The notes under the pieces: generated by a model
What the model was told of the DNA's origin: nothing
What the model saw: only the letters and a program-made list of their open reading frames with translations
Database searches by the model: none
Made by a program: the position numbers and the translations under genes
In this document: positions 4,451 to 32,179 of the stretch, one piece after another
Layout: every line of letters begins with the position of its first letter
Position numbering within the stretch: the stretch's first letter is position 1
Source of the DNA: Promethearchaeota archaeon
Lineage (GTDB): Archaea; Asgardarchaeota; Lokiarchaeia; Sigyniarchaeales; SOKP01
DNA length: 32,179 nucleotides
Reading direction: 5' to 3'
Assembly: GCA_016930515.1 (NCBI GenBank)
Contig: JAFGGO010000066.1
Coordinates: forward strand, 1-32,179

Positions 4451-5014
4451 ATGACAGACGAGGAAATCGTGTTTGAAGGACGAACCGAAGTTATTTATAA
4501 AATAATCGTGATTGGAGACCCTGCCGTGGGAAAAACCTCCTTGTTGGACAAGTATTCTTCGAAGAAATTCAAGTCGCAATACATCCCAACGGTTGGCACG
4601 AATATCGTAAAAGAGATCGTTGAGATAGAGGAGAACGGAAAAATAATAATGGTAAACTTGATGATCTGGGACATCGCAGGACAACCCCAATTTTACATGC
4701 TCCATCGACCATATTTTAACGGTGCCGATGGCATGATGCTCGTGTTTGACATCACCAGGAGCAGTACTTTCTCAAACGTGCAAAATTGGTTTAACACTGC
4801 CGTGAAATACGGACTGAGCGCGATTCCGCGAGTAATTATTGGAAATAAAATCGATTTAAAAGACGAAAGAAAGATCATCAAGCCCATGGCGGATCATTTG
4901 GCCGACAAGCTTAATTGTAATTACTACGAGACTTCTGCTAAAACCGGCGATGGCGTAAAGACTATCTTTAAAAACATTGCCGAAATCGTGAGGAAGGCAA
5001 AAACGAAATCTTAA
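4451..5014 (+). CDS. Rab-like small GTPase (Asgard type)
   Basis: G1 GDPAVGKT, G2 YIPTVG, G3 WDIAGQ, G4 NKID, G5 SAK; no C-terminal Cys prenylation motif. Confidence 0.93.
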   Translation: MTDEEIVFEGRTEVIYKIIVIGDPAVGKTSLLDKYSSKKFKSQYIPTVGTNIVKEIVEIEENGKIIMVNLMIWDIAGQPQFYMLHRPYFNGADGMMLVFDITRSSTFSNVQNWFNTAVKYGLSAIPRVIIGNKIDLKDERKIIKPMADHLADKLNCNYYETSAKTGDGVKTIFKNIAEIVRKAKTKS

Positions 5015-11154: not shown

Positions 11155-11759
11155 CTTTTGTTATAAGAAACTGGGTTTTTTTGTAAGAATAGGTGCATTT
11201 AATTAGCATGTCACTTGGTTTTTTACCAAGTCACGACCTTTTTTTACAATTTTGATAGTACTATTATAAATTCTCTTTTTTTAAATTTAACGATCGGGGT
11301 AAATTAGTTCTTTATTAATGATAAGAAAGCTCTTTTTTTGAGAAAGGATTTGTGGTAAAAAAGGATACATGCATTGATTGCATTTTTAAAAATCAATCAA
11401 ACGAAGATTTAGATAATTTAATATTTATTTCATCCAAATAAGATTTTTCTCGATTTTTATTGTTTGTTGTGCGATTGGTCGATCGAAAACGAAGAAACTT
11501 TAATAAAAATAAATATACCATGCTTTTCATCCATTTTCTAAGAATTTTGGGACGACCGTTGACAGGAAAAAATTACTTATTCTTATTCTAGTTTAGAGCC
11601 ATATAGAAAATACTTTTTTCTAACCAGGAACTGAATAACAAGATCAATAATAAATATTAATCCATTAACATATCATATAATAAATAGTGTTTTTTAGCTA
11701 GCAACAAGCGTTATTTTGCTTAAGCATATATATGAAAATTGTTATTATTGAGTAGGATT

Positions 11760-12326
11760 ATGTCGGCAACAAAAAAGTACAAAATATGTATATTTGGCGA
11801 TGGTGGCGTCGGAAAAACTACATTAACTCAACGATACCTCACAGGAGTATTTAAAGAGAAATACCAGCTTACCATTGGCATGGATTTTTACTTGAAAAAG
11901 CTGAATTTAAACGGTCAAGAAGTTTCACTCTACATATGGGATTTTGCCGGAGAAGAAAAGTTCCGTTTTCTAATGTCTGCTGCCCTCATGGGCGCACACG
12001 CCGTGATATTCGTGTACGACATCACGAGATATATCACATTAAAGAATTTGGAAAATTGGTTTTCTGTGTTTGCAGAGGCACGAGAAAAAGAAAGCCAAGA
12101 CATGATCGTTGTTGCGGTAGGATCCAAGTTAGACCTCGCAGAATTAAGAACCATTCCAAAGGAATCTGGCACGGAATTAATCGATAAATATGATCTAAAC
12201 GGCTGGATCGAGTGTTCCGCTAAGGACGGAACTAATGTAGAAAGAATCTTTGAGGAATTAACTCAAGGCTTACTTGAGCAAGAATCTTCTCGTAAAAAGA
12301 ATAAGAAAGTAATTTTTTTTGATTAG
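11760..12326 (+). CDS. Rab-like small GTPase
   Basis: GDGGVGKT, LTIGMDF, WDFAGEEKF, GSKLD, ECSAK; ATG 11760 preferred over the track's TTG 11739. Confidence 0.92.
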   Translation: MSATKKYKICIFGDGGVGKTTLTQRYLTGVFKEKYQLTIGMDFYLKKLNLNGQEVSLYIWDFAGEEKFRFLMSAALMGAHAVIFVYDITRYITLKNLENWFSVFAEAREKESQDMIVVAVGSKLDLAELRTIPKESGTELIDKYDLNGWIECSAKDGTNVERIFEELTQGLLEQESSRKKNKKVIFFD

Positions 12327-18553: not shown

Positions 18554-18568
18554 TTTTTTATTTAAATA
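18554..18568 (+). promoter_or_regulatory. T-tract/TATA promoter element TTTTTTATTTAAATA
   Basis: About 50 nt before ATG 18618; shared motif class (see findings). Confidence 0.55.
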
Positions 18569-18617: not shown

Positions 18618-19313
18618 ATGGTAGATAGGCACGATTATCCCTTTTTTGGCCAAACCACGGGAATGATAGTATCCAGCAATTCAAGATCCGAACCTTATAT
18701 GTTTCTTAAATGTATAAAAAAGAAACAAGATGGATCGTGGGAAAAGGCATCTTTAGGAGAAGGCAAGACTGTAAAATTTTCCTTAGAAGAAATGATGGAG
18801 ATCGTGGATCTTTTCAAGGGAAACGCTGATAAATGGAGTGGATTTCACGATTTCAACGGAGAAAAAACCCAGATTTCCATCAATTGGGAAAATGGGGAAA
18901 AGAAGAATGTATGGGTAAAAATTAATTCATACGCAAGGAGATTTCAAGGCGGACAGATGGGCGTGTTCAGGGATTTATTGGCACACATCCTCGATGAAAA
19001 GATCGCTCACGCAACCGTCATGAGCGTTCAAAGAGAACGAATTAAGGAAGAGCTTACCATAGATTCAGATTCGAGTCCAATAAACACCAAGATTAAATCT
19101 AATAACGATTTGGTTGATCAGAACGACGAAAAGATAAAAGTCAAAGGTAAGATAAATGGTCAGACGGATAAAGCGCTCCTAATCGTGTTTTTAAATGGGC
19201 AAGAATCGTGGATTCCTAAGTCCTCAATAGCATCAAGATTGGAAGAGAACTCCGACGCATTTCAAGAGTTAATCGTTGATTCCTGGGTACTCAAAAAAAA
19301 TAAAGTTATATGA
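18618..19313 (+). CDS. Putative Whirly/PC4-like ssDNA-binding protein with C-terminal small beta-barrel
   Basis: Order YPFFG..MFL..GSWEK..KFSLEEM..GFHD..VFRDLL resembles the Whirly pattern; C-terminal TDKALLI..WIPKS..DSWVL domain. Pattern recognition only. Confidence 0.55.
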   Translation: MVDRHDYPFFGQTTGMIVSSNSRSEPYMFLKCIKKKQDGSWEKASLGEGKTVKFSLEEMMEIVDLFKGNADKWSGFHDFNGEKTQISINWENGEKKNVWVKINSYARRFQGGQMGVFRDLLAHILDEKIAHATVMSVQRERIKEELTIDSDSSPINTKIKSNNDLVDQNDEKIKVKGKINGQTDKALLIVFLNGQESWIPKSSIASRLEENSDAFQELIVDSWVLKKNKVI

Positions 19314-19367
19314 TCCTCTTTTTCATTTTTGATAGTATATTATCACCATTATTTCTTTTACAATTCA

Positions 19368-19382
19368 TTTTTTATTTAAATT
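19368..19382 (+). promoter_or_regulatory. T-tract/TATA promoter element TTTTTTATTTAAATT
   Basis: About 50 nt before ATG 19433. Confidence 0.5.
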
Positions 19383-19432
19383 AAACCAAATGAAAATAAG
19401 GCTATAGTATATGAAATATATTTTAATGCATC

Positions 19433-20680
19433 ATGGCCGTTCAAAGCTATCTATCGAATTTATTTGTTTCCCGCTCGAAATTACTTTCCGATTTCACGCA
19501 AAATTATCTCGATTCCTTCAATTTTAGAGAAAACATCAATCTTCACTCAGGAACGCAATTTAGATTCACGATTCGGGAAAGAACAAAACCTAAGAAAATC
19601 AATCCCATTATCAGAAAAGCGAGAGCTAGCGATGTAGAAGATATAGTATACACATACAAGGATGTCTACGAGGGAACACATCCATACAGGGAGATGGAGG
19701 ATCCTACTCACATTCTTAAAATGATTGAAAAGGAAAATGTTGAATGGTTGATATTTGAGCACCCCAATACTGGCGAAATCTGTGGTTGTTTCACCCTAGT
19801 CCTCGATTTTAAAGATATGAAGGGTTATACCAGAGGTTTCGTCGTGAAGAAAAAATTTGAAGGTAAGTTGGATGTGATAAAAGCGTTCTTAGGGTCTTTT
19901 ATCGCAATGTTTGCAAAATACGAAGGCAAGATATTTAGGTGGTATGGTGAAAGCAGGACGGCGCATTCGAAGTCACAGTACTGCATGAGGCCAAGCGGGT
20001 TTAAACCTATTGCATTTCTCCCCAATAAGGATGTGTTTTTCCATAAGGTCGAATCCGACATTTTAATCATAAGTTACGACCAGAAGGCTATCTCGGACAT
20101 GAGATCCAAGGAAATACCTACAATAATACCAGAAGTCGTTGATTGCTTTCGCTATTCTTCAAGACGGTACGCATTAGGAAAATATAAAACATATCATTCT
20201 CCTTTATTCCTTGATCAAAAAAGACTAAATTCCATTTCTAATAAAATAATTAATCGTTACAGCAAGGATAGGTTTGGATACCAAAAATACAATATCCACA
20301 TAAAGGAAACGGAATCATATTTGTCGTTCTTATACACGCCATCAGTTCAGAGCATTGAAAAGGTCGAATATCATGCGGAAAGCATTGAGGATCTACATGT
20401 TTTAGTAAGAGAATTGATAAACGAAGCATTTCGCTTGCAAGTTAGATATATGGAAGTCTTCGTGAGCGCGTATATGCCTCAAGAACAATTGGTATTTTAT
20501 GAATTGGGATTGATTCCTCGAGGGTACTTACCAAGCTGGAAATATGATATTGTGACTTCCAATTTTAAAGATTACATCCTATTTAATAGATTTCGAGGGC
20601 AAGTTGCTAAAGACATTCAGTTATTAGACGAGGGAAAGGAATTACTTGATTGTTTAAAGTTTACTCTTCATAGAATTTAG
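19433..20680 (+). CDS. Tandem GNAT-fold protein
   Basis: IRKARASDVEDI..YTRGFVVKKKFEGK..SGFKPIAFLP, and a second fold ending FYELGLIPRGYLP. Confidence 0.7.
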   Translation: MAVQSYLSNLFVSRSKLLSDFTQNYLDSFNFRENINLHSGTQFRFTIRERTKPKKINPIIRKARASDVEDIVYTYKDVYEGTHPYREMEDPTHILKMIEKENVEWLIFEHPNTGEICGCFTLVLDFKDMKGYTRGFVVKKKFEGKLDVIKAFLGSFIAMFAKYEGKIFRWYGESRTAHSKSQYCMRPSGFKPIAFLPNKDVFFHKVESDILIISYDQKAISDMRSKEIPTIIPEVVDCFRYSSRRYALGKYKTYHSPLFLDQKRLNSISNKIINRYSKDRFGYQKYNIHIKETESYLSFLYTPSVQSIEKVEYHAESIEDLHVLVRELINEAFRLQVRYMEVFVSAYMPQEQLVFYELGLIPRGYLPSWKYDIVTSNFKDYILFNRFRGQVAKDIQLLDEGKELLDCLKFTLHRI

Positions 20681-20863
20681 GCATAGAACACGATGATTAC
20701 GAATCGAACGGATTTGGACAAAACGACAAAATGGTGAAAGCAACAAACCTAATAATAGGCAATTAGCAAAATCTCGTTGCTTTTGATGATGATTGGTATA
20801 AAATTAATTTGTAATAGTGCTTTATAAGTATAAGAAAAGAACATCAAAAAAGGTATTCAATCC

Positions 20864-22444
20864 TTAAATTCTAAAGAAAGCTTTTCCGTCCATTATCCAA
20901 AAAGGAAGTATGTCCTTCTTCACCAATTCGTCGATGTTCTGGTTAAAGCGCTTGGAAAGAAAATTATTGGAGATAATGAGTGCTTTTTGGTCTCGCGCAT
21001 ATTTAAGTAAGAGTTCTTCGACAGGAATTCCATCGGGAGCTTGTAAAATGAGATTTTGTTTCACGCATTTTAAATAGGCATCTGGCAAATCAATACAGTT
21101 GGCGAGAGAGGCATCTGATACGATGACTATCTTCTTTGCACCCAAGTCTCTTAAAGCGTCGTAAACGAGTTTGATGTTTACGAGTTGCGCTCCACCGTTT
21201 TTTGAAAGAGAATGATAAGCCACATTCGTACCGTCAACGACAAACACCCTACCTTTTAAGGTTAATTTTTGTTTTTTCCTAAAATATAGCTCGTTTTGAA
21301 GAGAATTTTCAAATACTTTTTGCTCTACTCGATTAAGCGTTTCTAAGAACCACTTCTTAAAAGACACAAAATCAGAAAGAGGCGATTCGATCCCGTGCTT
21401 CTTTTGTGGTTGTATTCTTTTAATTGAGTTCGAAACACTAGTGTTATCTCGAATTAATTTCGAAATTAAGGCATCTGGAACCTTTAAGTAAGTAAAGATT
21501 TTTTTAAAATCCTCATTATCGGTTTCTGACAACTCAAATTTCGTGTAATTCATCGCAACCCAACTGGCAAGGAAGTCTTCGGGAATTCCGTCCTTCCAAT
21601 GATGATTTCTCAAGTAATCATACAATTTTTGAGGATCGTAGAGTTGTTCCAACTCTAAATTCGCAGGATTAACCTTATCGTGTCGATAATCGTGGAGAAC
21701 TTGAACGAATTCCCGGGCAATTTGCTTGTTAATATTGATAACGAACTCGTATTCCTTGACGAAGGTCTTTAGTTTATTGAATCTATTTTGATGTGAGTTG
21801 GAAAACTTACCTCCTTTCGTTTCGATCTGGGGTAGTTCTATATCGAAATAGAGTTCCACGAACTTTAAGATCTTGTTCCAATATTTGCGAGGATATTCCG
21901 CTAATATCTCGTTTAAAAAGCCAAGCTCTCCCGTATCTACATACTCCGCGAATATTGAACCTGCAACGGTTTTAATTTTCTGGATTTTATCAAGCAGGAT
22001 ATTCTGATTTCTCGATGTTTGTATTAAAAGATTTTCAAACTCGAGATCCAATTCAGAAATATTGTAATTCAGAAACGAATTGTTTTTCTTGTTAAAAATA
22101 ACATACTTATTGTCGTTTATCTGGAGATGAACGATCTCGTTTACATTTAAAATACATCTTATTCCTTTTACTTGGACAATCTGGTTTAACATTTCCTCTC
22201 TGAGATTATAGATCAAGAACAAGGTCGGATTTTGGGAATAAGAATTGTTTAGTTCGCTCTCAACTATCTCCTTGAGGTTGTGCAATGCTGTTGATTCGAA
22301 ATCAATGACATTGTGTCCAACGGTAAAGGTTTCTAAAACATGAAGGTGCTTCAAATCGATATAAGGCAACAAAATAAGGTTTTTTTGCTGAAAAAATAAA
22401 ATATTCAGAAATTCTGGTCTGATTAGATCAATACCTGCGTCCGT
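20864..22444 (-). CDS. Large protein with C-terminal NYN/PIN (Zc3h12a-like) domain, probably degenerate; track start 22372, proposed ACG start 22444
   Basis: VFVVDGTNVAY..VSDASL..PVEELLLKYA..IISNNF; GGAGGTG lies 7 nt before the in-frame ACG. Confidence 0.8.
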   Translation of the reverse strand, partial: TDAGIDLIRPEFLNILFFQQKNLILLPYIDLKHLHVLETFTVGHNVIDFESTALHNLKEIVESELNNSYSQNPTLFLIYNLREEMLNQIVQVKGIRCILNVNEIVHLQINDNKYVIFNKKNNSFLNYNISELDLEFENLLIQTSRNQNILLDKIQKIKTVAGSIFAEYVDTGELGFLNEILAEYPRKYWNKILKFVELYFDIELPQIETKGGKFSNSHQNRFNKLKTFVKEYEFVININKQIAREFVQVLHDYRHDKVNPANLELEQLYDPQKLYDYLRNHHWKDGIPEDFLASWVAMNYTKFELSETDNEDFKKIFTYLKVPDALISKLIRDNTSVSNSIKRIQPQKKHGIESPLSDFVSFKKWFLETLNRVEQKVFENSLQNELYFRKKQKLTLKGRVFVVDGTNVAYHSLSKNGGAQLVNIKLVYDALRDLGAKKIVIVSDASLANCIDLPDAYLKCVKQNLILQAPDGIPVEELLLKYARDQKALIISNNFLSKRFNQNIDELVKKDILPFWIMDGKAFFRI

Positions 22445-22476
22445 TGTTTAACACCTCCAATAATATAAGAACAAAT

Positions 22477-23202
22477 TTATAGTAATTCATACTTGAAGTA
22501 GTTAAAAATAACCTGTACCATCAAGTCTTCGAAACACGGCACGACATTATCACCTTCTAGGGCCTTTGAAGGATATAAAACTCTCGTGTCGTCTGAGTAG
22601 GTTTCTTCAGATGGAAGTCCCATATCTTTTTTAAAATCACCAATTGGTATTGCGTTGTCCAAGTCGCGCTTATTGAGCTGAACAACATATGGAATTTGTT
22701 TTGGACCCGCAAAACTTTTTAATTCCCTGAAACTGCGCTTGTTTTGTTCCATTTTCTCTAGATCTGAATCCGCAACAAATACAATACCATCAGCACCATC
22801 AAGTACATATTCCCTCGTAGAAAGGAATCTTTCTTGACCCGTACATGTGACTACTTGAACCACGATTTCGTACAATTTTTGGTCGATTTCAAAATCAAAG
22901 GATAAGAAAAGTGAATCTTGCCAAAGCGTTCGACCGTCGGTAGTTTCGATGGAATATCCTTGACTTATTTCGGTCATGCTAAACTTTTCTTTCAAGCGAA
23001 AAAAGTTCGTGGTCTTTCCAGACTCCCCTGGCCCCCAATACACGATTTTAAATTGTATCACGCCGTCTTTTCTCCTGTTAGCCTTGCCAGAGTTCTGACT
23101 TGGCGCTGATTCTTCCTTTTTGTTTGATGTATTGATTATCATTTGATCATCATCTCGAGAGGATCTAGGTAGCACTACCAATCTTATCCTTGAAAATCTC
23201 AT
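22477..23202 (-). CDS. mglA: MglA-family small GTPase (true start probably GTG 23175 or ATG 23142)
   Basis: KIVYWGPGESGKTTN, TTDGRTLWQD, TCTGQ, VLDGADGIVFVADS, NKRDL. Confidence 0.9.
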   Translation of the reverse strand: MRFSRIRLVVLPRSSRDDDQMIINTSNKKEESAPSQNSGKANRRKDGVIQFKIVYWGPGESGKTTNFFRLKEKFSMTEISQGYSIETTDGRTLWQDSLFLSFDFEIDQKLYEIVVQVVTCTGQERFLSTREYVLDGADGIVFVADSDLEKMEQNKRSFRELKSFAGPKQIPYVVQLNKRDLDNAIPIGDFKKDMGLPSEETYSDDTRVLYPSKALEGDNVVPCFEDLMVQVIFNYFKYELL

Positions 23203-23713
23203 TCTTCAGGTTTTTAATATGTTCTTTAAGCTGAAGCTCGTTCATCTTGAGAGTATGTTTGATATTGTTGCTTTTTTGAATCTCTTGCTTGATCAAAGGA
23301 GCAAATTTTCCCATTTGGAGTACGACTACTCCAATGTTGACTTCCCTATCCGTCAGGAGCACGATAAGGATCTCGCGCTTTCCCTTCTTTTCGAGAGCAA
23401 CGGGACCAAGCGAGCGCACGAACAATTGCATGTTATTGTAAATCAAGCTGGCTCGCTCCAAGTTGTCGGTTTCAAAAAAGTCTTGTCCCTGTCTCGCAAT
23501 ACCATACAACGCAGCGCCTATCGAACCCAAGTCCCAGTAATTTAATTTTTTTTCAAACCGAGAATCTACGGCTATGATTTTCGCGTCTTGGTCTATCGCA
23601 ATTAACCCGTATATATACCCTTTTCGAGTCAAGCGCCCGTAATTAGTCCTGATATCGCTTAAAAGCTCACTTATCTTGTTTTGAAATAACATCTTTGGGA
23701 TTGTTCCATTCAT
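23165..23713 (-). CDS. mglB: Roadblock/LC7 (MglB-like) protein
   Basis: IAIDQDAKII..LGSIGAALYGIARQ..ILIVLL..VNIGVV roadblock pattern; immediately upstream of mglA. Confidence 0.75.
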   Translation of the reverse strand: MNGTIPKMLFQNKISELLSDIRTNYGRLTRKGYIYGLIAIDQDAKIIAVDSRFEKKLNYWDLGSIGAALYGIARQGQDFFETDNLERASLIYNNMQLFVRSLGPVALEKKGKREILIVLLTDREVNIGVVVLQMGKFAPLIKQEIQKSNNIKHTLKMNELQLKEHIKNLKNEIFKDKIGSAT

Positions 23714-23755
23714 TGTCGTTCAATCATTTTTTTTACAAAGATAGAACGATAGAAG

Positions 23756-23770
23756 TATTTAAAGGAAAAA
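23756..23770 (-). promoter_or_regulatory. T-tract/TATA promoter element TTTTTCCTTTAAATA
   Basis: About 43 nt before the mglB ATG; followed by CTTC, as in the radA promoter. Confidence 0.55.
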
Positions 23771-23781
23771 TTTAGGGATCT

Positions 23782-24699
23782 TTATTGAATCTTGTTTATA
23801 ACGGTTTTTTTCGTAATTTTTATTTGATTTAGTCCAGTGTATTGATTTTTCTTTACCAAAACATTAGAAAGAGAAATTTTATCCCCTATATCTAACATTT
23901 TAAAGCATTCTACAGCACGAATCCCCCAAACTACGACTTCGATGTGCTTATCGTTGTTGCATAAAAAGATGCTAAGTAAGAAAGATTTATCGCCGCTTTT
24001 CAAGTTTTTTTCGCCAAATTTCTTGTTTTCCACGATGCCGATAATTTTTTCGTAAAATCCTTCGCTTTCAAATAATCGAGTTATTTTTGGAGCGGCCTGA
24101 ATATATTTCTGCCTTAAATAATTTTTGTTTATTAAGGGCGGAATTTCGTTCTTTTTCACATTTTGGGGCGCTATCTCTAAGAATCCTTTTTTCTTTACCT
24201 GTAGCTCCAAGATTCCTTTTGTGCCTTTCTTAGCGTAGGCACCAATAATTCGCACGATCTCGTTAGGTTTAATATAATCATTACGCATTATTTCAACTTG
24301 CCTGTCCCATAATGTTACTTTTATTTTACCTGTCTTATCTCTCAAGACGAATGATCCTACCATGCCAATCGTGCCGTCCTTTCTCGTAAATTCCTTGATA
24401 CCATAGATGGTTTCAATCCTACCCGAGATTACAACATTGTCAGTATTTTCTGAAAGATCAGCAATATTTGACTCGAAATCGCAATAATCCACATTTTCGT
24501 GCATATATTCCTCTATTTCGAAATAGGTTTCAATAAGGTGTAAGTTTAGGCCTCTTTCCTTGGCAATCACGAACAATAGGGCTTCTGTGGTCAAATAACC
24601 CCCATAATCCCGTTCTTTTTTTTGCATTTCATTTTTAATCTCAGATTCAGTGAGACCTGAGTTGAGAAGAGCGTCATACAATTCGTCAACATTAGACAT
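23782..24699 (-). CDS. Archaeal RPA/SSB-like protein (N-terminal DUF2240-like helical domain + two OB folds)
   Basis: GGYLTTEALLFVIAKERG; EFTRKDGTIGMVGSFVLRDKTGKIKVTLWD; second OB fold IEVVVWG..LDIGDKISLSNV. Confidence 0.88.
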   Translation of the reverse strand: MSNVDELYDALLNSGLTESEIKNEMQKKERDYGGYLTTEALLFVIAKERGLNLHLIETYFEIEEYMHENVDYCDFESNIADLSENTDNVVISGRIETIYGIKEFTRKDGTIGMVGSFVLRDKTGKIKVTLWDRQVEIMRNDYIKPNEIVRIIGAYAKKGTKGILELQVKKKGFLEIAPQNVKKNEIPPLINKNYLRQKYIQAAPKITRLFESEGFYEKIIGIVENKKFGEKNLKSGDKSFLLSIFLCNNDKHIEVVVWGIRAVECFKMLDIGDKISLSNVLVKKNQYTGLNQIKITKKTVINKIQ

Positions 24700-24723
24700 T
24701 CGTATTGCCTCGATTCGTGTGTT

Positions 24724-25317
24724 TTAATCTTTTCCATATATTTTCAAGATGTTCCGCGTTCGGTGAAAAGCATAAGCTGAACAGTTCGCCAAGTATCTCA
24801 AGTTTTTCTGCAAGATCGGCTTGTAATGGTTCGATTTCAGATCCTTCTTGTCGGTAACAAATATGATCACGGCAATCTGTGTGGAAATGCGTGGCCAAAA
24901 TACCACTTTTCTCAATTTATCGTGCAATATAGTAAGATTTATTCTTGCTCGCTTGTAATCGAATACTGGGGCAAAACGATGGACTAAATGCAGGTATGCT
25001 CGTACTTTTCGGTTTAAGGATTTGGGGTCATGTGCCCGCCGAAGTACGATCCTGTTTAAAAATTCGTGTAGAATTAAAAGGTTTTTCAAAAATTGATTTA
25101 CTATATTCCAAACCGTTGAACGAGGAATGTTTAAGAGGTTAGAAATCTGAAGCACCTCACTTGGAGGTAATTGTTCACGCAGTTGCCCTTTATGAGTTAA
25201 GGAGACCAATCTCACAAGAATGTTAAGAACTAAAGCCCTAGTTTCTTTTGAAGGGACAAGTACTCTATATTTTGTTGTTCTAATAGTTTCGTTAGACATT
25301 TTCGTTAACATGTTCAT
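24724..25317 (-). CDS. Basic HTH protein with C-terminal TFB/cyclin-like repeat
   Basis: QISNLLNIPRSTVWNIV HTH; TQIAVIIFV..LQKNLRYLANCSAYAFHRTRNIL resembles the TFB C-terminal repeat (xxAAAxYIA..TQxEIAxxxxxTExTIRxRY). Inference. Confidence 0.55.
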   Translation of the reverse strand: MNMLTKMSNETIRTTKYRVLVPSKETRALVLNILVRLVSLTHKGQLREQLPPSEVLQISNLLNIPRSTVWNIVNQFLKNLLILHEFLNRIVLRRAHDPKSLNRKVRAYLHLVHRFAPVFDYKRARINLTILHDKLRKVVFWPRISTQIAVIIFVTDKKDLKSNHYKPILQKNLRYLANCSAYAFHRTRNILKIYGKD

Positions 25318-25367
25318 TTTTCCGTCCTTAAAACATCTATTATTCGTAATTTAACTTAGAGCCCATA

Positions 25368-25382
25368 TATTTAAATAAAAAA
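25368..25382 (-). promoter_or_regulatory. T-tract/TATA promoter element TTTTTTATTTAAATA
   Basis: About 51 nt before ATG 25317. Confidence 0.55.
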
Positions 25383-25455
25383 TGAGTTATTTTTTTCACC
25401 CTTTCTATTAACTCGTTTGCCTGCATTATCGTTGTAAAAATTGTTATTCAGAAAT

Positions 25456-26547
25456 TCAATCAGTTAAATAAATATCTAGTGATTTTTGTGAGGTTACATG
25501 CGTTTTAATAGCGCTTTTGAAATTAGTCAAGCATTTATAATAGCTTCTCGATAAGATTGACATGGCTTTTTCCACCCGTTCTCGGTTAAGATGGTGGTTT
25601 TGGCATAGGAATGAAACCACTCGAGAAGTATCTGGTGCGTTCCAATGAATGTTTCCGGTTAGATTAACAATATCTGGAAAAAGAAATATCTTCCTTATAT
25701 TTTTTATTACTTCATGAGTAAGATAAGTGAAATCATATTTTTTGGAGTATATCTGAATAATTTTCTCTAAATTTCTGTTTTTTTTTACTAGCGATAAAGA
25801 CCTTTTTGCTCCCAGGTTTTGAACACCTGAAAAATAGTCATTTCCAACAAGAATGGTCATATCCACCAGTTGAAACCTATCGATACCCCACACGCGCAAA
25901 TTTTGGTTAAGATCCACAAGTTGAGTATTTACTTTTTCATAAACCCATTTTCCACGCTGTTTTCTCCGTCTCGATTTCGAGAGGTTTTGAACGGTACGAG
26001 GACACCCGAAAACGAGAATATCATAATCTTGGGAAACGGCAAAATTTGCCACATTCGAGGAAACTAAGTGTGCACATTGAGCTTCGGCAGACGCAGGCGA
26101 TTCGATTATCGGCACGCCCATTGCTCCTAATAATAGCCTCGATTCATTCAAAACATTTGTCCACAAATATTCCTTGCTTAAGGCAATATTGTGTGCTGCT
26201 TTTAGATCTCTCCTCTCAATTGCCTTTTGATAAAGTTTCTCTGAAAACAGAAAATCTGCAAGTAGGTCTTTGGTGATCTTCCTCTTGAGTTCTGAATCTC
26301 GGCCATCAAAGCAAAAAATAGGTAAAATGCCATTGGAATAGTAAAAACTTACCCTGTATAATAAACCATAGAGGTGAGAAATGATTTTCTGCGTGCGATC
26401 CGTTATATAAGCAGCATTTTCTATCCTACTTGAAAATCCTATCAGGGCAGCGAGAATATTCGAAGCATCTACTGCAACGATGCTGTTCATTAGATCGTTC
26501 GTTTTAATGATGTTCGATTTAACGATTTCCCTTATTTTTACTCCCAT
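25456..26547 (-). CDS. fen: Flap endonuclease FEN1/XPG-family paralog with PIP box
   Basis: MGV start, VAVDASN, SHLYGLLYR, FCFDG, AEAQ, SQDYD, GNDY..G.GAK, C-terminal QKSLDIYL. Confidence 0.9.
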   Translation of the reverse strand: MGVKIREIVKSNIIKTNDLMNSIVAVDASNILAALIGFSSRIENAAYITDRTQKIISHLYGLLYRVSFYYSNGILPIFCFDGRDSELKRKITKDLLADFLFSEKLYQKAIERRDLKAAHNIALSKEYLWTNVLNESRLLLGAMGVPIIESPASAEAQCAHLVSSNVANFAVSQDYDILVFGCPRTVQNLSKSRRRKQRGKWVYEKVNTQLVDLNQNLRVWGIDRFQLVDMTILVGNDYFSGVQNLGAKRSLSLVKKNRNLEKIIQIYSKKYDFTYLTHEVIKNIRKIFLFPDIVNLTGNIHWNAPDTSRVVSFLCQNHHLNRERVEKAMSILSRSYYKCLTNFKSAIKTHVTSQKSLDIYLTD

Positions 26548-26569
26548 AAATGCGTACTATAATTCAATG

Positions 26570-26585
26570 AATTTAAAGGAAAAAA
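26570..26585 (-). promoter_or_regulatory. T-tract/TATA promoter element TTTTTTCCTTTAAATT
   Basis: About 23 nt before ATG 26547 (leaderless spacing). Confidence 0.6.
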
Positions 26586-26680
26586 GAGAATTAATCAAAA
26601 TGTTCTGAGAACAATAAATCATTTTTCTTTTATCAATTTGGGTTCAGTTTACAGAGATTTTAGCTCTCTTAGGATTTCAT

Positions 26681-26869
26681 TTACTTAAGTCCGTTTGCGA
26701 AGGCAAGTTTCTCTTCGATCGAGAGTATTTCCTCGTCATCAAATAGGGATAAATCTTTTTTTTCGAATTCCAATTGGCACACAAGGCAATCAAATGATTT
26801 TTCGTAAATCGCGAGAGCTTTTCCCTGACAACGAGGGCAATGTAAGTCTATTTGCTCTTCTTTTCTCAT
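26681..26869 (-). CDS. Small Zn-ribbon protein
   Basis: CPRC..CLVC..EFEK..LSIEEK; paralog of 27064-27345. Confidence 0.75.
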   Translation of the reverse strand: MRKEEQIDLHCPRCQGKALAIYEKSFDCLVCQLEFEKKDLSLFDDEEILSIEEKLAFANGLK

Positions 26870-27063
26870 GGTATACCGAATTCGCCAGTTAGATTGAATA
26901 ATTGAGATTTTATATATAACAAATAGACAGTATCCTTATTAAATGCACCTGCATGTTTAGAATGCTTATTATCTTTAAGGATTCTTTGATATATAGGACG
27001 AATTAAGACATCATATATTTTCATAGGTCCTCGTACCTCTATTAGTATTATATAGATTCTAAT

Positions 27064-27345
27064 TTAATTCCTGCTATGCTCTATATCTTCAAGGCAAAAC
27101 CGTATTAAAAGGGCCACGATATTTGATTTCTCTTCCTCGGCAAGCATATTTTCAGGGTCATAAATCGAAAGCTCACTTTTATTAAACTCGAGGGAGCAAT
27201 TTAAACAGTCTAGACTCGTATCGAGGTCGAATAAACTAGAGCTATGGCAACGAGGGCATGTTTCTGATTCAATATCGTATGAAACAGTCTTAGAATATCT
27301 CAGTCGTGCTCTAGTGCTCCTTTTTTTTTCCTGATTTTCTTGCAT
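27064..27345 (-). CDS. Small Zn-ribbon protein (paralog of 26681-26869)
   Basis: CPRC..CLNC..EFNK..LAEEEK. Confidence 0.75.
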   Translation of the reverse strand: MQENQEKKRSTRARLRYSKTVSYDIESETCPRCHSSSLFDLDTSLDCLNCSLEFNKSELSIYDPENMLAEEEKSNIVALLIRFCLEDIEHSRN

Positions 27346-27392
27346 ATTTCCGCACTCTTCTTTTGATCTTGTTGGTTGATGATAAGTTGTTA

Positions 27393-27442
27393 GTTTAAAA
27401 ATAAAAAACGCTCTCGCTCGAAAAGGGTTTTTTCTTTATATA
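27393..27442. promoter_or_regulatory. Back-to-back T-tract/TATA elements of a divergent pair
   Basis: Minus strand: TTTTTTATTTTTAAAC (27408-27393, variant). Plus strand: TTTTTTCTTTATATA (27428-27442). Confidence 0.5.
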
Positions 27443-27485
27443 GGTTCGATATCAAAGAATTTAAAGCACAAATAATTTCGAGTAA

Positions 27486-27866
27486 GTGAAAATGACAAGA
27501 AACGATAGCGACATAATCATCATCAAGGACAAAAAAAGTTCGTTCAAGGGAGCATATTGGGTGTTGTTTGCACTCCTTTTATTCGTTGCGATTTATGTGC
27601 CGTTTTTTGGAACGAACCTCAGGTATCAAACGAGCGCTGTCTTAAAGACCGTTTTTAACACAATCGGGACTATTTGTCTAGTAGGAGGAGGCATTCTAAT
27701 TGCGTTTGGAATAATATCCATTTTTCTAAAGGGCACTAGAGGACTTGCAATGATGTTGATCGGTGTGTTAGCCCTGTGGATCGGATCCTGGCTGACAGGT
27801 ACTCCCTTCTTATTTGAATTATTCGGGTTGGGGGCAGATGCCAGCGAATCGACAGGATATCATTAA
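27486..27866 (+). CDS. Small 3-TM membrane protein
   Basis: Three hydrophobic Gly-rich helices. Confidence 0.8.
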   Translation: MKMTRNDSDIIIIKDKKSSFKGAYWVLFALLLFVAIYVPFFGTNLRYQTSAVLKTVFNTIGTICLVGGGILIAFGIISIFLKGTRGLAMMLIGVLALWIGSWLTGTPFLFELFGLGADASESTGYH

Positions 27867-28114
27867 ATTCTCCTTTTTATCTTTCATTGAATTGAGTCTA
27901 AATATTTAAATTTATTATTCATTTATTGATTAAATTATTCAACATTCATGCTAAATTATTTTCAAATTTATGGTGGAATTAACCGTTCAATCTATTTTAA
28001 TAAGCTGCAAACCAATTTATTCAGAGTGAAGAGTTCTTTTCGGATCAGAAATAAGTTCGTGTTTAGACCCTTGAGCCCATTTTCAAAAAATATCCTGCGA
28101 ATTTAATGCCTTCG

Positions 28115-28336
28115 TCATATATTAAGGTGAAAATAATTGAATCCCGTGTATAATCCGCACAACGATATTAGTGCAATGCAGAGTATCATGACGGAAATCA
28201 GACTCATTCGCAATCGCTTGGTGCCAACGAGAAGGAACACGAAGCAGACTACGAGCCCCAATACGCCCACGATCGATCCAAGTGCTATTAAGTATTCAAT
28301 ACCATTTTCCATACTATCGAAGTAATCGAACATCAT
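28115..28336 (-). CDS. Small 2-TM helical-hairpin membrane protein (pilin-like architecture)
   Basis: IALGSIVGVLGLVVCFVFLLVG-TKRLR-MSLISVMILCIALISLCG. Confidence 0.75.
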   Translation of the reverse strand: MMFDYFDSMENGIEYLIALGSIVGVLGLVVCFVFLLVGTKRLRMSLISVMILCIALISLCGLYTGFNYFHLNI

Positions 28337-28360
28337 GATGTTTGAAAGATGACCCCCTTG

Positions 28361-28421
28361 TTTATAAAGAAAAAAAAACTCAGAAGTTCCGTTTTTAATA
28401 GGGCGATTTTTTCTTTAAATA
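28361..28421. promoter_or_regulatory. Back-to-back T-tract/TATA elements of a divergent pair
   Basis: Minus strand: T9-C-TTTATAAA (28378-28361), about 25 nt before ATG 28336. Plus strand: T6-C-TTTAAATA (28407-28421), about 50 nt before ATG 28471. Confidence 0.6.
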
Positions 28422-28470
28422 AAATCGCTCGAGAGTTTATTCAAACCATTTCATAAAAAAGTGGAAAAAT

Positions 28471-28788
28471 ATGAAAAAATTAGAAGAAATAGGTACTTGT
28501 CCAAAGTGTGACTTTTCGATTTTTTCGTACAAGACTACCCAGTACAAGCGATTTGCGAAGTGTTCTAATTGTGGAACCTCGTATTCTTTGCCAAAAAGGG
28601 GTAAATTGTTGAATTCCGCCCTAACATGCCCTATCAGGAATTTTCCTATACTTATCGTGGATAGGAACGAGGGAAGGGCATTTTTCTGGGCAGATCAGCC
28701 GTGCTTTAATTGCGTGCATTACGATAAATGCGAGCCAATTAGTGAACTCGTTTCCGAGTTCAAGGAATTAGAGGTGTACGGTTATTAA
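28471..28788 (+). CDS. Standalone topoisomerase-IA C-terminal-type zinc-ribbon protein
   Basis: IGTCPKC..KRFAKCSNCGTSYSLPKRGKL..CPI..FPIL..CFNC resembles archaeal TopA C-terminal zf-C4 repeats. Confidence 0.7.
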   Translation: MKKLEEIGTCPKCDFSIFSYKTTQYKRFAKCSNCGTSYSLPKRGKLLNSALTCPIRNFPILIVDRNEGRAFFWADQPCFNCVHYDKCEPISELVSEFKELEVYGY

Positions 28789-28807
28789 CGCTCAGAAGAA
28801 AGCTTCT

Positions 28808-29812
28808 ATGGTCATTATATTTTTTTTAATGTTTGTTATTTCTTTTGCCGTTCGATTAAATCAATGTGAACCAACCGCACTAATAGGTTTTGATAACGAG
28901 TTTGGAGAGCTTCGAACGAGTGAAGAAATTCTAATTGATAAGGTCTACGAGTTTACAACAGATAACCCAGTTAAAAAATTCGAAGACTTGGAGATGATTG
29001 CTGAATATCGTTATTTTTTATATTTCAAGATGGTAACTCCTCATCAGTGCAATTTAATAATTTCTATAATTGATCCAAATGGAACAACATACGACGCTTT
29101 TAACGACTCCAATTTTAATCAAGAGGAGGGTTTGCGGAGCGTTCCATTTGGAGTAGCTATTACTGGAGGGCACGACTTGTATTTTGAAGTTAACGCTTCG
29201 TACAATGTTAATGTCTATATAAGGATAGAACGAGAAATAAAATGTCTTTATGATGTTTTCTCCTCACAAGCCTCAGGAAATGTGATTTTGTATGGAGTGC
29301 ATAAATTCGAAAACGCACTTATTGACACGCAAAATGTGACTCTCCAATCCGATACCGAATACGCGATTTATCTGGCGCGAGTTTCTCCCATTTCCACTGC
29401 GATTGTTGAAAATCAAGTGAAGTTTAATTATTCGCTAACGGATATTGAACGTCAGACCGTTTTCGAGCTTAATTGGAAGAACCTTGCTCTTGCTCCAATC
29501 GGCGAGGTAACAAAATATAGCTTTGGGACCGCCAATGGTGGTCAATACAAATGCAATTTAAATGTAAAGTGCGAATATAATCCCGTGAATATTGCGTTTG
29601 CAATTGTATACGATCACGAAATTAGCAACGAGCTAGAGGAAAATCAAACGGAGATCATACCGAGCGATGGTGCCAGTCAGAATGTTCTTGTGAGTCTTTC
29701 TCCCCTGCAAGTTGTAATATTCGTAGGTGCGTTTGGTGTAATAGTATTCGGGGCGATAGTGGGCGTAGCAAGGAGCAGAAAAAAAAGAAATACAACAATC
29801 AGTAAATTTTAA
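28808..29812 (+). CDS. Exported protein with two beta-sandwich repeats and C-terminal TM anchor
   Basis: N-terminal hydrophobic segment; internal repeat (YxxY..V(T/S)P..FGxAxxG..VN(V/I)); C-terminal TM followed by RSRKKR. Confidence 0.8.
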   Translation: MVIIFFLMFVISFAVRLNQCEPTALIGFDNEFGELRTSEEILIDKVYEFTTDNPVKKFEDLEMIAEYRYFLYFKMVTPHQCNLIISIIDPNGTTYDAFNDSNFNQEEGLRSVPFGVAITGGHDLYFEVNASYNVNVYIRIEREIKCLYDVFSSQASGNVILYGVHKFENALIDTQNVTLQSDTEYAIYLARVSPISTAIVENQVKFNYSLTDIERQTVFELNWKNLALAPIGEVTKYSFGTANGGQYKCNLNVKCEYNPVNIAFAIVYDHEISNELEENQTEIIPSDGASQNVLVSLSPLQVVIFVGAFGVIVFGAIVGVARSRKKRNTTISKF

Positions 29813-30001
29813 CCTTTTAATTCTTTATTCACGCTTCTTTTAACGATAATACTATTGAAAGCTTGAAAAAATAGCCTGCTTTCTAGTTTAATAATAATTA
29901 CATTTAAGAAACCAAAAAAGGATTTATGTATTAGTTAAAAATCGTTTTTGTATCTATCTTAATAAAAAATAGAATCTTTAAAAAAATAAAAAAAATAAAA
30001 A

Positions 30002-31237
30002 TTAGATATTCGTGAGGAGCCGGGCGTTTTCTTGCATTTCTAATATTTTTTTTGAAGACAAACCAGAAATTTTACCGGCGAGATCATCAGGGTTTGCCGA
30101 GAGTAGGGATTCGATGGATGTGATTCCCTGTTCGGCAAGATTTTCTGCAGTACCTTTTCCAATACCTTTCACATTTACCAATGGAATGGTCGTGAGTTTA
30201 GCCTCACTAAGTTCATCTCCTTCCGAATCCTCGTACAATGTTTCGATCTCGAATCCATCGATGTCCTCTCTATCATTATCCGGAATATCGCCTTGTTCGC
30301 TGTCCGATACACCCGCAGAGGTAATATAAAACTCGCATTCTTCGGGCGGAAGATCGGGAGCGTCAACGATGATAGCCTTGCGCTTAAGGGAATTATTCGA
30401 CGAAAATCCCTTTGTCTTGAACATCACTCGAAAATGACATCCATGAGCCACGATATTTCCTCCAATGGCATCATCAGCAGCAAACATCCCCATCATCTTG
30501 GTTGCGACCTGATTGGTGAGCAGTATGGCACAATTATATGTTTCAGCTATTCTCGATAAGGCATGGATCATGTTATTGAGAACTTGCTGGCGTCTTGCGA
30601 GCATACCAATACCCATATACTCGTTTCTCATCAAGGCCATCAAGCTATCGACCACTAGAAGTCTCACACCCCGAGATTTGCACAAGTTCTCTGCTTTTTG
30701 GATCATTTGCGCTTGGTGGTCGGAACTATAGATGCGCGTGTGGTACAAGCGAGTAAGCACGATCTTGGGATCGAGACCGAACCGCTTGGCGATCCGCATT
30801 ATCTTGTCCTTTGAAAAGGTGTTCTCCGTGTCGATATAAGCAACCGCGCAGTCAAGGCCTCCTTTAGATAGTGGAAGCTGTGCCGAAACGGCTATGGTGT
30901 GAGCCAGGTTGGTTTTACCCGATTTGAATGGACCAAACACTTCGGTGAGCTTGCCAGTCTGAACACCCCCACCTAGAATTTTATTTAAAGCTTGAGAGCC
31001 CGTCGTGATGATTTCCACATGTTCGTTGATGCTCTCTGCTGCCACGAATTCCGTCATTCCTAAAGCGTTTCTGGCGTTCCAAACGAGCTTTTTAGCGGTT
31101 TTATCGCCAAGACCATCTATATCGGCAATCACATTCAAGGAAGACATTGCAAGCGCTTCTGCCGTGCTCACCCCGCTTTCTTGAAGGAGCTTGATCTGAC
31201 GCGCGTTGATCCCCTTGATTTGACTTAATTCTGACAT
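30002..31237 (-). CDS. radA: RadA/Rad51-family recombinase paralog with extra C-terminal HhH domain
   Basis: N-terminal HhH, FVAA (FxxA), Walker A GPFKSGKT, YIDTENTF, LLVVDS, TNQV, IGGNIVAH; acidic linker, then VKGIGKGTAENL..GITSIESLL. Confidence 0.93.
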   Translation of the reverse strand: MSELSQIKGINARQIKLLQESGVSTAEALAMSSLNVIADIDGLGDKTAKKLVWNARNALGMTEFVAAESINEHVEIITTGSQALNKILGGGVQTGKLTEVFGPFKSGKTNLAHTIAVSAQLPLSKGGLDCAVAYIDTENTFSKDKIMRIAKRFGLDPKIVLTRLYHTRIYSSDHQAQMIQKAENLCKSRGVRLLVVDSLMALMRNEYMGIGMLARRQQVLNNMIHALSRIAETYNCAILLTNQVATKMMGMFAADDAIGGNIVAHGCHFRVMFKTKGFSSNNSLKRKAIIVDAPDLPPEECEFYITSAGVSDSEQGDIPDNDREDIDGFEIETLYEDSEGDELSEAKLTTIPLVNVKGIGKGTAENLAEQGITSIESLLSANPDDLAGKISGLSSKKILEMQENARLLTNI

Positions 31238-31302: not shown

Positions 31303-31318
31303 TATTTAAAGAAAAAAA
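31303..31318 (-). promoter_or_regulatory. T-tract/TATA promoter element TTTTTTTCTTTAAATA
   Basis: About 66 nt before the radA ATG; followed by CTTC, as upstream of mglB. Confidence 0.55.
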
Positions 31319-32029: not shown

Positions 32030-32179
32030 TTAAAGTACTTTCATTTTAGATGAATATTCAACAAATTTTTGTGGTCTATGAGCAAAACCCTTATCGTCCA
32101 TGCCCCCACATTCTTGTAATATTGTTTTTAATATTGGATTTTTTCCAATTCTTAAACTCTCTAAATTAATTAGAGTCTC
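32030..32179 (-). CDS. C-terminal end of a leucine-rich-repeat protein (partial, starts outside window)
   Basis: Hand translation ETLINLESLRIGKNPILKTILQECGGMDDKGFAHRPQKFVEYSSKMKVL*; LxNLxxLxIxxNPI LRR unit. Confidence 0.7.
   Translation of the reverse strand, partial: ETLINLESLRIGKNPILKTILQECGGMDDKGFAHRPQKFVEYSSKMKVL

Follow-up and report, generated by a model that had tools for sequence, protein, structure and literature searches.

A stretch of 32,179 nucleotides (nt) from a Promethearchaeota archaeon (contig JAFGGO010000066.1, positions 1-32,179; GCA_016930515.1, labelled G000; Lokiarchaeia, Sigyniarchaeales), referred to below as the window, contained part of a gene island which is fairly probably a separately switched recombination programme. 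The island encoded a second, divergent set of proteins predicted to act in homologous recombination and branched-DNA processing: a third RadA (RadA3), an RPA paralog with two OB folds, a Whirly-fold protein, a divergent FEN-1 paralog (Fen1-2), a RadB-like ATPase, and Hef and Hel308-like helicases. At least nine predicted transcription units of the window lay behind one rare promoter type, conserved across family f1 (families are labelled f1 to f5, the genomes of relatives with G and contigs with C). The island was chromosomal, vertically inherited and dispensable in this order of Loki-type Asgard archaea. Fifteen genes (g17 to g31) were delimited between positions 18618 and 31237 from the listing of open reading frames (ORFs) and family scans. 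The genes named in the original prediction, which had proposed a DNA-exchange/recombination island built from divergent paralogs, were found in place by family scans and by structure or profile comparison of each gene.

Sequence comparison supported the reading of the recombination genes in the window as extra paralogs, and not as the sole housekeeping copies. RadA3 (g31, 30002-31237, minus strand) matched PF08423 with 239 bits and had two HhH_5 stretches in Pfam, the second forming a C-terminal HhH domain after an acidic linker; this linker and second HhH were present in f1 only. Two better-scoring RadA proteins were encoded elsewhere in the genome, on C161 and C83 (about 40% identity to RadA3 each), in agreement with the RadA paralog originally proposed. 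The Rad51 core, Walker A (GPFKSGKT), Walker B (VVDS), N-terminal HhH and FxxA motif (F-V-A-A) were all present, making RadA3 a member of the RadA/Rad51 family; Walker A, Walker B and FxxA were retained across orthologs, and loop L1 had GIG instead of the GRG of canonical RadA. The equivalog model TIGR02236 scored 291 (cut-off 361), yet NF003301 scored 325.5 (cut-off 259). In a phylum-wide tree of 82 RadA sequences, RadA3 proteins from f1 to f4 formed a clade with 100% support in the SH-like approximate likelihood ratio test (SH-aLRT) and a long stem (0.57 substitutions per site), and the canonical RadA of the order formed a separate clade (97% support). RadA3 was therefore rejected as an orthologue of the housekeeping archaeal RadA, its TIGR02236 score being under the cut-off and its clade separate. 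The inner branching of the RadA3 clade followed the families, which argues for an old, vertically inherited paralog. A eukaryote-like RadA3 was also rejected: in phmmer searches of the PDB, it was about equidistant from archaeal RadA, Rad51 and DMC1 (197-223 bits).

The composition of RadA3 differed from its surroundings: the gene had 46% GC (GC at third codon positions, GC3, 0.49), and in all 11 relatives checked (loci L011-L028) it was 5-10 GC points above its own locus. More generally, the island genes had GC3 values of 0.34-0.50 vs. 0.27-0.32 for RadA and FEN in their housekeeping copies. Candidate causes are differences in codon selection or in expression level, and biased gene conversion. 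Among the canonical proteins, the C161 RadA (L001:1492-2754) was extended at its N-terminus by about 100 amino acids (aa), including a CPEC motif and a long acidic stretch, and f1 had its own duplication of canonical RadA, into the C161 and C83 types.

Fen1-2 (g24, 25456-26547, minus strand) contained XPG_N and XPG_I domains (XPG_I, 83.7 bits) and scored 267 bits against TIGR03674, under the cut-off of 352. The canonical fen gene was located on C126 (423 bits with the same model) and was 32% identical to g24, so that the predicted FEN1 paralog was confirmed as a divergent second copy. All 7 acidic ligands were kept in f2, with the E-x-E motif intact (EAEAQC); in f1, 6 of 7 were kept, the first Glu of E-x-E being replaced by Ser in all copies. 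The C-terminal tail, which reads QKSLDIYL in g24 and QxxLDxx[FL] in the majority of f1 orthologs (reference QxxLxxFF), is a putative PCNA-interacting, PIP-like motif. A divergent second Fen1 of Asgard archaea, Fen1-2, has been described (PMC12680538); g24 fits this protein and is probably of the “Loki-2” type, in which the beta-hairpin is kept. A eukaryote-like Fen1-2 was tried and rejected, since in phmmer searches of the PDB g24 scored higher with archaeal FEN-1 (164-174 bits) than with the human FEN1 (120 bits). The canonical fen gene (C126, L006:2509-2545, minus strand) had no ATG, GTG or TTG start; its conserved MGVKI was specified by ATC-GGC-GTA-AAA-ATT, which immediately followed an in-frame TGA, and GGTGA was located 5 nt upstream; this suggests a start at ATC or else a sequencing error.

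Two proteins putatively binding single-stranded DNA (ssDNA) accompanied these enzymes. The first, g22 (23782-24699, minus strand), was a short RPA paralog of about 305 aa, in which a helical domain at the N-terminus was accompanied by two OB folds only (PF01336, 33.7 bits; NF012035, 81-82 bits vs. a cut-off of 362), and no cysteine-rich Zn motif was visible in its sequence. The predicted RPA was thus recovered as an RPA-like protein with two OB folds. In nearly all relatives a canonical multi-OB RPA of about 575 aa was encoded elsewhere than in the island, the island copy having about 310 aa. Neither this canonical RPA nor a paralog of g22 was detected among all ORFs of the G000 assembly, which is 94% complete, with NF012035, PF08646 and a hidden Markov model built from g22 orthologs; a protein with an RPA32-like OB fold and a winged helix on C31 (4263-5012) was the only other RPA-type find. 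Since the canonical RPA was present in nearly all relatives, the G000 copy is probably in an assembly gap. The expectation that canonical copies exist elsewhere thus held within G000 for radA and fen, and for rpa in the relatives only.

The second, g17 (18618-19313, plus strand), consisted of a Whirly-type domain (residues 1-135) and a small C-terminal beta-barrel (172-227) in an AlphaFold2 (AF2) model with a pLDDT of 80.5. The top 16 Foldseek matches in the PDB were plant Whirly proteins (PBF-2, WHY1-3, StWhy2; E 2e-5 to 4e-4, probability 1.0, TM-score by target 0.48-0.66), followed by MRP1/2 and PUR-alpha. No Pfam family matched at E 0.01, Whirly (PF08536) included, and the protein atlas gave a lead only (0.82). 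The Whirly-like protein of the original prediction was therefore recovered by fold and not by sequence family; the modelled fold is that of Whirly, and ssDNA binding is predicted. This family was found in one class only: it was present in 68/68 genomes of f1, 6/7 of f2 and 1/1 of f5, and in none of about 225 other genomes of the phylum. One g17 paralog was encoded on C65.

Several small Zn-ribbon proteins were also encoded. The g29 gene (28471-28788, plus strand) encoded a cysteine-rich protein of 105 aa, 46-66% identical to its f1 orthologs and 30% in the f2 genome G038. Its predicted Zn-ribbon was present, while the topoisomerase type assigned to it had weak matches only (Zn_ribbon_Top1, E 0.003; topoisomerase I model NF005555, E 5e-5). 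The small CxxC...CxxC proteins g25 (26681-26869, minus strand) and g26 (27064-27345, minus strand) were paralogs with 50% identity; g25 orthologs were found in G003, G004, G017 and G020. Both matched weakly RPA_interact_C (PF14768, the Zn-binding C-terminus of the eukaryotic RPA-interacting protein; E 0.004 and 0.005 respectively), a likeness which may be generic Zn-ribbon similarity only.

The upstream regions of the island genes shared a motif of 15 nt, TTTTTYMTTTAWAWW, also written TTTTT[TC][AC]TTTA[AT]A[AT][AT]. This corresponds to a promoter type with a T-tract in place of the purine-rich B recognition element (BRE), followed by TTTAAATA. The window contained 10 matches vs. 0.15 expected (maximum of 1 in 100 shuffles), and the whole 4.0-Mb genome 56. 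Nine of these 56 were located 37-80 nt upstream of window genes on the correct strand: on the plus strand before g17 (18554-18568), g18 (19368-19382), g27 (27428-27442) and g29 (28407-28421, for the g29-g30 unit), and on the minus strand before g21 (23756-23770, for the g21-g20-g19 unit), g23 (25368-25382, for the g23-g22 unit), Fen1-2 (26570-26584), g28 (28361-28375) and RadA3 (31303-31317). Three further matches were found in the part of the island on contig C137, described below. In relatives, the motif was located 27-92 nt (mostly about 35-75 nt) upstream of the orthologs of g21 (12/15), g27 (6/7), g29 (7/10), g18 (5/7), RadA3 (8/14), Fen1-2 (7/17), g23 (5/9) and an M50-like gene (5/10). 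It was found neither before the TFB paralog of the island (0/11 loci) nor before operon-internal genes. Its retention at orthologous positions argues for co-regulation. Ten of the motif-bearing genes elsewhere in the genome were scanned with Pfam and were mostly unrelated (e.g. PmbA/TldD, ATP-grasp, MaoC, an iron-dependent repressor), and for this reason a wider regulon is not claimed.

These genes might have no common function, with ordinary conservation of gene order among relatives and a motif that is simply a common AT-rich promoter. The comparisons were indeed mostly within one order, and a genome of 35% GC makes T- and A-rich motifs frequent. Against this, 9 of the 56 genome-wide matches were clustered in 13 kb, each of them at the distance of a promoter and in the right orientation, and the motif was kept at orthologous promoters though the proteins were only 45-70% identical. 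The island also persisted over four families and survived internal shuffling, with flanks unconserved even within the genus. We consider this explanation very improbable.

Orthologs of RadA3 and Fen1-2 were located, on the same contigs, in 40 relatives, and 20 syntenic loci were fetched for comparison of gene order. The order g17 to g31 was the same in the f1 genomes G003-G007, G015 and G017-G020, and also in G024, in which the block was split over two short contigs; in G012, G013 and G023 the order was shuffled and the genes were still linked. In f2, including the complete genome G038, linkage was kept for Hel308-like, RadB-like, RadA3, Whirly, Fen1-2, the g29 Zn-ribbon, and the GTPase with its roadblock partner. 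A single 13.5-kb contig of G031 (f4) carried Hel308-like, Hef-like, RadA3, roadblock and GTPase genes, and one contig of G026 (f3) carried RadA3, a Fen1-2-like gene and a g18-like gene. Co-conservation of the genes was thus substantiated by synteny in about 20 relatives, including all f1 relatives fetched, with the core linkage in all four families of the order, and the clustering is not due to chance. None of the refuting observations named in the original prediction was made: the genes were extra copies and co-conserved, and their shared promoter argues for co-regulation. The genes flanking the island in the window (g03 to g16) were never beside it in any relative fetched, same genus included, so the linkage is not mere shared ancestry of gene order.

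The same variability of flanks would be expected of an ancient integrated or domesticated mobile element (the replication-recombination module of a virus or plasmid) or of an anti-virus defence island, and archaeal mobile elements often carry divergent paralogs of RadA, helicases and nucleases. The loss or decay of the island in genus g14, its GC3 above that of the housekeeping paralogs, the resemblance of the Hel308-like helicase to Hachiman HamB (149 bits) and a SIR2-TPR gene inserted in the island of G038 point in this direction. However, the ORFs scanned in the window gave no Pfam match to integrase, transposase, capsid, terminase or replication-initiator families, and no tRNA gene or tRNA target was found in the window. 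The originally noted absence of a visible integrase, transposase or capsid gene thus held in the Pfam scans, and an integrated mobile element or provirus was rejected as a candidate for the window on these grounds. The island was usually single-copy, RadA3 being present in most f1 relatives and marker genes in nearly all f1 genomes searched (Whirly 68/68), and the RadA3 tree followed the taxonomy of the four families. PADLOC assigned nine of ten island proteins to no defence family, bar generic P-loop similarity (RadA3, RadB-like), and the helicase scored far higher against Hel308 (412 bits) than against HamB. Altogether, a mobile or defence origin is improbable.

Two of the relatives showed particular states of the island. 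In G032, a complete genome (4.36 Mb) of a sister family (genus g14), only a C-terminal fragment of RadA3 (residues ~242-332; C1:1881423-1881839) was present, beside g18-like genes and two small island-type genes, and Fen1-2 was not found; the decay of the island in G032 and the absence of y4 (described below) from the genomes G032, G025 and G033 indicate that the island is dispensable. In G038 (L019:15053-17467), an 804-aa SIR2-TPR protein of defence type was inserted between the Zn-ribbon genes and the GTPase/roadblock pair.

The island ran beyond the end of the window onto contig C137 of G000. The window ended in the C-terminal part of a leucine-rich-repeat protein (32030-32179, minus strand) cut by the contig end, and the open N-terminus of this protein was found at the end of C137, the gene spanning both contigs; the two were joined because the gene order past RadA3 in relatives was the order found at the C137 end. 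The island thus measured about 45 kb or more in total, of which the window stretch was about one third. The C137 part encoded a RadB-like ATPase (a RadB-like gene was also present on C27), a membrane protein of M50-like type, a TFB paralog of divergent sequence, a large protein carrying a toroid domain of the prenyltransferase type, a helicase-only Hef paralog (the canonical Hef was located on C126, 862 bits), a DUF5817 Zn-ribbon protein and a Hel308-like helicase with an HhH domain, the best Hel308 match of the genome (332 vs. 226 bits). Its gene order was the same in G005, G006, G007, G015, G018, G019, G020 and G024.

The TFB paralog (C137, L033:14572-15528) had a putative Zn-ribbon and a putative cyclin repeat. 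Zn_Ribbon_TF matched with E 8.7e-5, under its cut-off, and NF001658 with 27 bits; a profile of the orthologs matched cyclin repeat 1 of human and archaeal TFIIB/TFB at E 0.003-0.01 and the Zn-ribbon structure 1pft at E 0.083. The protein had 318 aa in G000 vs. 406-420 aa in most relatives (up to 477), for which truncation at the C-terminus or a wrong gene boundary may account. That this factor reads the T-tract promoter is suggested by the T-tract occupying the place of the BRE and by the island having a private TFB. The original analogy with a regulon governed by a TFB paralog gains support from this gene; the candidate then proposed for the factor, g23 (24724-25317, minus strand), did not hold. 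This basic protein of 197 aa, seen only in f1 and with a conserved C-terminal motif (CSAYAFHRTRN), had no PDB profile match, no Pfam match in ten orthologs and no Zn-ribbon, and was rejected as a TFB- or cyclin-like factor; comparison with the island TFB by hhalign gave a probability of 1.5%. The hhalign comparison of g23 with the 194-aa gene at the same position in G038 was also negative.

Genes for membrane proteins were part of the island in both contigs. In the window, g27 (27486-27866, plus strand; 126 aa) and g28 (28115-28336, minus strand; 73 aa), both with orthologs in f1, were read from their sequences as membrane proteins with three and two hydrophobic segments, respectively. They had been called pilin-like; this was not sustained, as archaeal type IV pilins have a short class III signal peptide and, after it, one N-terminal hydrophobic helix (the rejection follows from reading the sequences, with no dedicated pilin predictor). 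The g30 gene (28808-29812, plus strand), co-transcribed by prediction with g29, encoded a putative surface protein, also read from its sequence, in which a hydrophobic signal or anchor was placed at the N-terminus and a C-terminal transmembrane segment preceded a basic tail; it had no Pfam match and was 25-46% identical to its f1 orthologs. On C137, a co-directional operon (y1 to y6) adjoined the Hel308-like gene and encoded y4, its largest product, together with three other membrane proteins, one of which had 679 aa and an HhH domain and was preceded by the promoter motif. It was kept in the f1 genomes G006, G012, G015 and G018, and y4 was also near the island in the f2 genome G038; y4 was not found in the genus-g14 genomes G032 and G025, nor in G033. 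The y4 protein (C137:44338-48288) had 1316 aa and four transmembrane segments, and matched DUF87 (HerA/VirB4-class) with 21.5 bits and E 3.6e-4 (cut-off 23.2). At the position of Walker A it had DHTGEWSK, without the P-loop lysine, and the VirB4 model PF03135 had no match in the genome. The window was free of HerA/VirB4 ATPases, as first noted, while the C137 continuation has a weak domain of this class with no P-loop lysine. The 1316-aa protein and a 908-aa protein of C137 had no match in phmmer searches of the PDB.

A small GTPase and its putative partner completed the conserved core. The GTPase, g20 (22477-23202, minus strand), had Arf/Roc/Ras matches in Pfam, and its motifs were invariant in 14 orthologs: G1 GPGESGKT, switch I DGRTLW, G3 TCTGQE and G4 NKRD. 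In G3 (TxTGQE) Thr replaced Asp, and switch I carried an Arg; we take this set (P-loop, Thr-for-Asp G3, switch I Arg, NKxD) to be the MglA pattern. The start of g20 overlapped by 38 nt the end of g21 (23165-23713, minus strand), which encoded a Roadblock/LC7-like protein with a C-terminal helical tail and, at 58-87% identity in f1 and 36-38% in f2, surpassed all other genes of the block in conservation. The Pfam Robl_LC7 model did not detect g21; alignment to 12 Roadblock domains of the same genome by hhalign gave a probability of 51% (E 1.5e-4, 74 of 90 columns), the PDB profile search gave Roadblock 9jue_D at E 0.22, and one ortholog matched MAPKK1_Int at E 0.003. On this evidence the MglA-type GTPase of the originally predicted MglAB-type switch was upheld in g20, and g21 is a putative roadblock-like partner.

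In the mechanism proposed for the recombination programme, the private TFB paralog would read the T-tract promoter and switch the whole set on together. The RPA paralog and the Whirly protein would coat ssDNA, and RadA3, aided by the RadB-like ATPase, would pair the coated ssDNA with the chromosome. The Hel308- and Hef-like helicases would remodel the joints, Fen1-2, held on PCNA through its PIP-like tail, would trim flaps, and the GTPase/roadblock pair may set the timing or the place. The favoured substrate would be DNA from outside the cell, because of the co-regulated membrane proteins and the adjacent operon encoding an HhH protein and an ATP-dead HerA/VirB4-class protein. A switchable programme of DNA exchange and recombination, in which membrane proteins take up or hand over DNA under the private TFB, the dedicated recombinase set integrates it and MglA/roadblock places or times the process, is a tentative extension, possible but doubtful. 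DNA transfer, competence or mating is something we purely infer.

A damage- or stress-induced module for repair and fork restart, purely intracellular and with no DNA transfer, would use the same enzymes, the membrane proteins being passengers or serving for signalling or anchoring of the repair site. All the enzymes with an assignable function act on ssDNA, forks or flaps, and the PCNA-type tail of Fen1-2 ties it to replication. Such a module is also consistent with the lack of any pilin seen and with a HerA/VirB4-class domain devoid of the P-loop lysine; secretin, CedA and ComEC were not noticed, though none of them was searched for. It is harder to reconcile with the rare promoter of RadA3 and Fen1-2 standing before g27, g28, g29-g30 and the M50-like gene of C137, in orthologs too, with the operon of the HhH membrane protein staying beside the island in f1 and y4 near it in G038, and with a full housekeeping repair set already present elsewhere in the genome. 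This alternative is rather unlikely.

The separately switched programme may be compared with several known systems. As in the TFB3 response of Sulfolobales, with its Ups pili and Ced importer (PMC6101594; Ced/Ted, PMC9905601), a chromosomal set is apparently switched by a TFB paralog, and both combine membrane components with recombinational use of DNA. Ced is a conjugation-type machinery domesticated for cellular DNA (PMC9905601). Unlike in Sulfolobales, no Ups-type pilins were seen in the island when the sequences of g27 and g28 were read. In contrast to CedB, the sole HerA/VirB4-class protein of the island was the 1316-aa membrane protein with the degenerate P-loop, below the Pfam cut-off; a Ced/Ted-type VirB4/HerA ATPase with an active P-loop was accordingly rejected as a candidate. 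TFB3 works through a Zn-ribbon and a coiled coil together with TFB1 (PMC6101594), whereas the island TFB keeps a putative cyclin repeat and the promoters have their own T-tract element. In addition, the recombination enzymes of the island are themselves duplicated and inside the putative regulon, in contrast to the Sulfolobales response.

Extra RadA paralogs of Asgard archaea, all outside the eukaryotic Rad51/DMC1 clade, have been reported (PMC12722695), and RadA3 is one of them. A text search of this paper and of that describing Fen1-2 (PMC12680538) found no mention of genomic context, paralog linkage, a shared promoter or other island genes. The literature search returned no paper describing the island; Fen1-2 and the extra RadA proteins were treated singly, with no genomic context. 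The GTPase g20 shares the Thr-for-Asp G3 and the switch I Arg with the MglA/MglB polarity switch of Myxococcus and Thermus and with the MglA-like GTPases of the Loki strain MK-D1 (PMC10933270), and as in MglA/MglB its partner is adjacent, overlapping and roadblock-like. The GTPase genes of MK-D1 are generally not in operons with roadblock genes (PMC10933270); g20 and g21, unlike these, overlap by 38 nt and are linked to RadA3 in f1, f2 and f4. No described counterpart of a GTPase switch tied to recombination genes was found in the literature searched.

The Whirly proteins of plant organelles (WHY1-3, PBF-2) share their fold with the N-terminal 135 residues of g17, which has an EGKxxK strand motif where Whirly has KGKAAL, and the control of ssDNA and recombination is a common setting of both. 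Unlike plant Whirly, g17 has an extra C-terminal beta-barrel and no Pfam Whirly match. Eukaryotes have recombination paralogs specific to meiosis or to particular pathways: DMC1, the RAD51 paralogs, HFM1/HELQ, FANCM, MEIOB and EXO1/GEN1. The logic is the same, with a parallel recombinase and mediator ATPase, helicases of the Ski2 and Hef/FANCM types, an OB protein resembling RPA and a nuclease of the FEN family, separately regulated; the likeness is one of logic and orthology is not claimed, RadA3 being about as distant from Rad51 and DMC1 as from archaeal RadA.

The last gene of the co-directional run from Fen1-2 was g19 (20864-22444, or 20864-22372 from the first TTG, minus strand), encoding an N-terminal domain of about 350 aa and a C-terminal NYN domain (residues 375-492; PF11977, 26.1 bits, cut-off 23), as had been predicted. 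In the window copy the orthologs' SND was SNN and one Asp was changed to Glu; the orthologs kept the Asp residues. In the orthologs the protein starts with MD(T/A)G...PEFLNILFFQQKN, some 24 residues before the first TTG of the window copy (22372); the upstream stretch was open in the window, with an in-frame ACG at 22444, GGAGGTG before it and an in-frame TAA one codon further upstream. The alignment of the ortholog N-termini to this ACG supports a non-AUG (ACG) start. At least 382 homologues of the N-terminal domain, with or without NYN, were found in Promethearchaeota. Its AF2 model (pLDDT 73.6) had no Foldseek match in the PDB at E ≤0.001, and the protein atlas gave no usable match. VIA-align wide returned Z values of about 5, including the DENN regions of folliculin/SMCR8 over 133-140 residues, within the stated noise of the tool and therefore a lead only. 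The predicted complex between the g20 GTPase core and the g19 N-terminal domain scored 0.04 (mark 0.32), counted neither for nor against binding.

The 415-aa protein g18 (19433-20680, plus strand) was loosely linked to the island, its orthologs being at varying positions in or near it; no Pfam or NCBIfam match was found, and a paralog with 51% identity was encoded on C164. The remainder of the window consisted of ordinary chromosomal genes (ABC transporters, CheR, MFS, HAD, Ras-like GTPases, a NosD/PKD surface protein). The surface protein (1-3906), of more than 1300 aa with a NosD beta-helix and PKD domains, had related copies on more than 25 other contigs, and the two Ras-family GTPases (4451-5014 and 11739-12326) had family matches on more than 50 contigs.

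Several observations weigh against the reading as a separately switched programme. As the G000 assembly yielded no canonical RPA, g22 could do housekeeping there. The Hel308-like gene, being the best match in the genome, may likewise be the housekeeping copy, and the linkage would then be partly an ordinary repair-gene neighbourhood. The motif was absent from the f2 loci (0 matches in 60 kb of G038), and because it was defined on the window, its enrichment there is partly circular; only its conservation in orthologs is independent evidence. The scores behind the TFB assignment were weak (27 bits with NF001658), and its pairing with the motif is deduced only. The HerA/VirB4-class match of y4 was weak too, below the Pfam cut-off, with nothing found by PF03135. 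Some members may be non-catalytic, as the first metal-binding Glu of Fen1-2 was lost in f1 and an Asp of the NYN domain in the window. The expression and function of the island genes are predicted from the genes themselves.

For the origin of sex it matters in what way and at what time a distinct, regulated set of recombination tools came into being (PMC12722695). Work on eukaryogenesis has treated Fen1-2 and the extra RadA one by one (PMC12680538, PMC12722695). The new element is that Fen1-2 and RadA3 belong to one co-inherited, apparently co-regulated island, which brings a promoter code of its own together with a divergent TFB, a GTPase switch and membrane components; these paralogs are accordingly to be read as parts of an accessory programme and not as replisome variants. 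The 15-nt promoter element, the candidate TFB and marker genes for metatranscriptomes provide handles for experiment. Should the programme carry DNA from cell to cell, Asgard archaea would have in it their first described system of this kind, and such an exchange programme would represent, in the lineage nearest to eukaryotes, a prokaryotic forerunner of a “sexual” recombination toolkit under separate regulation.

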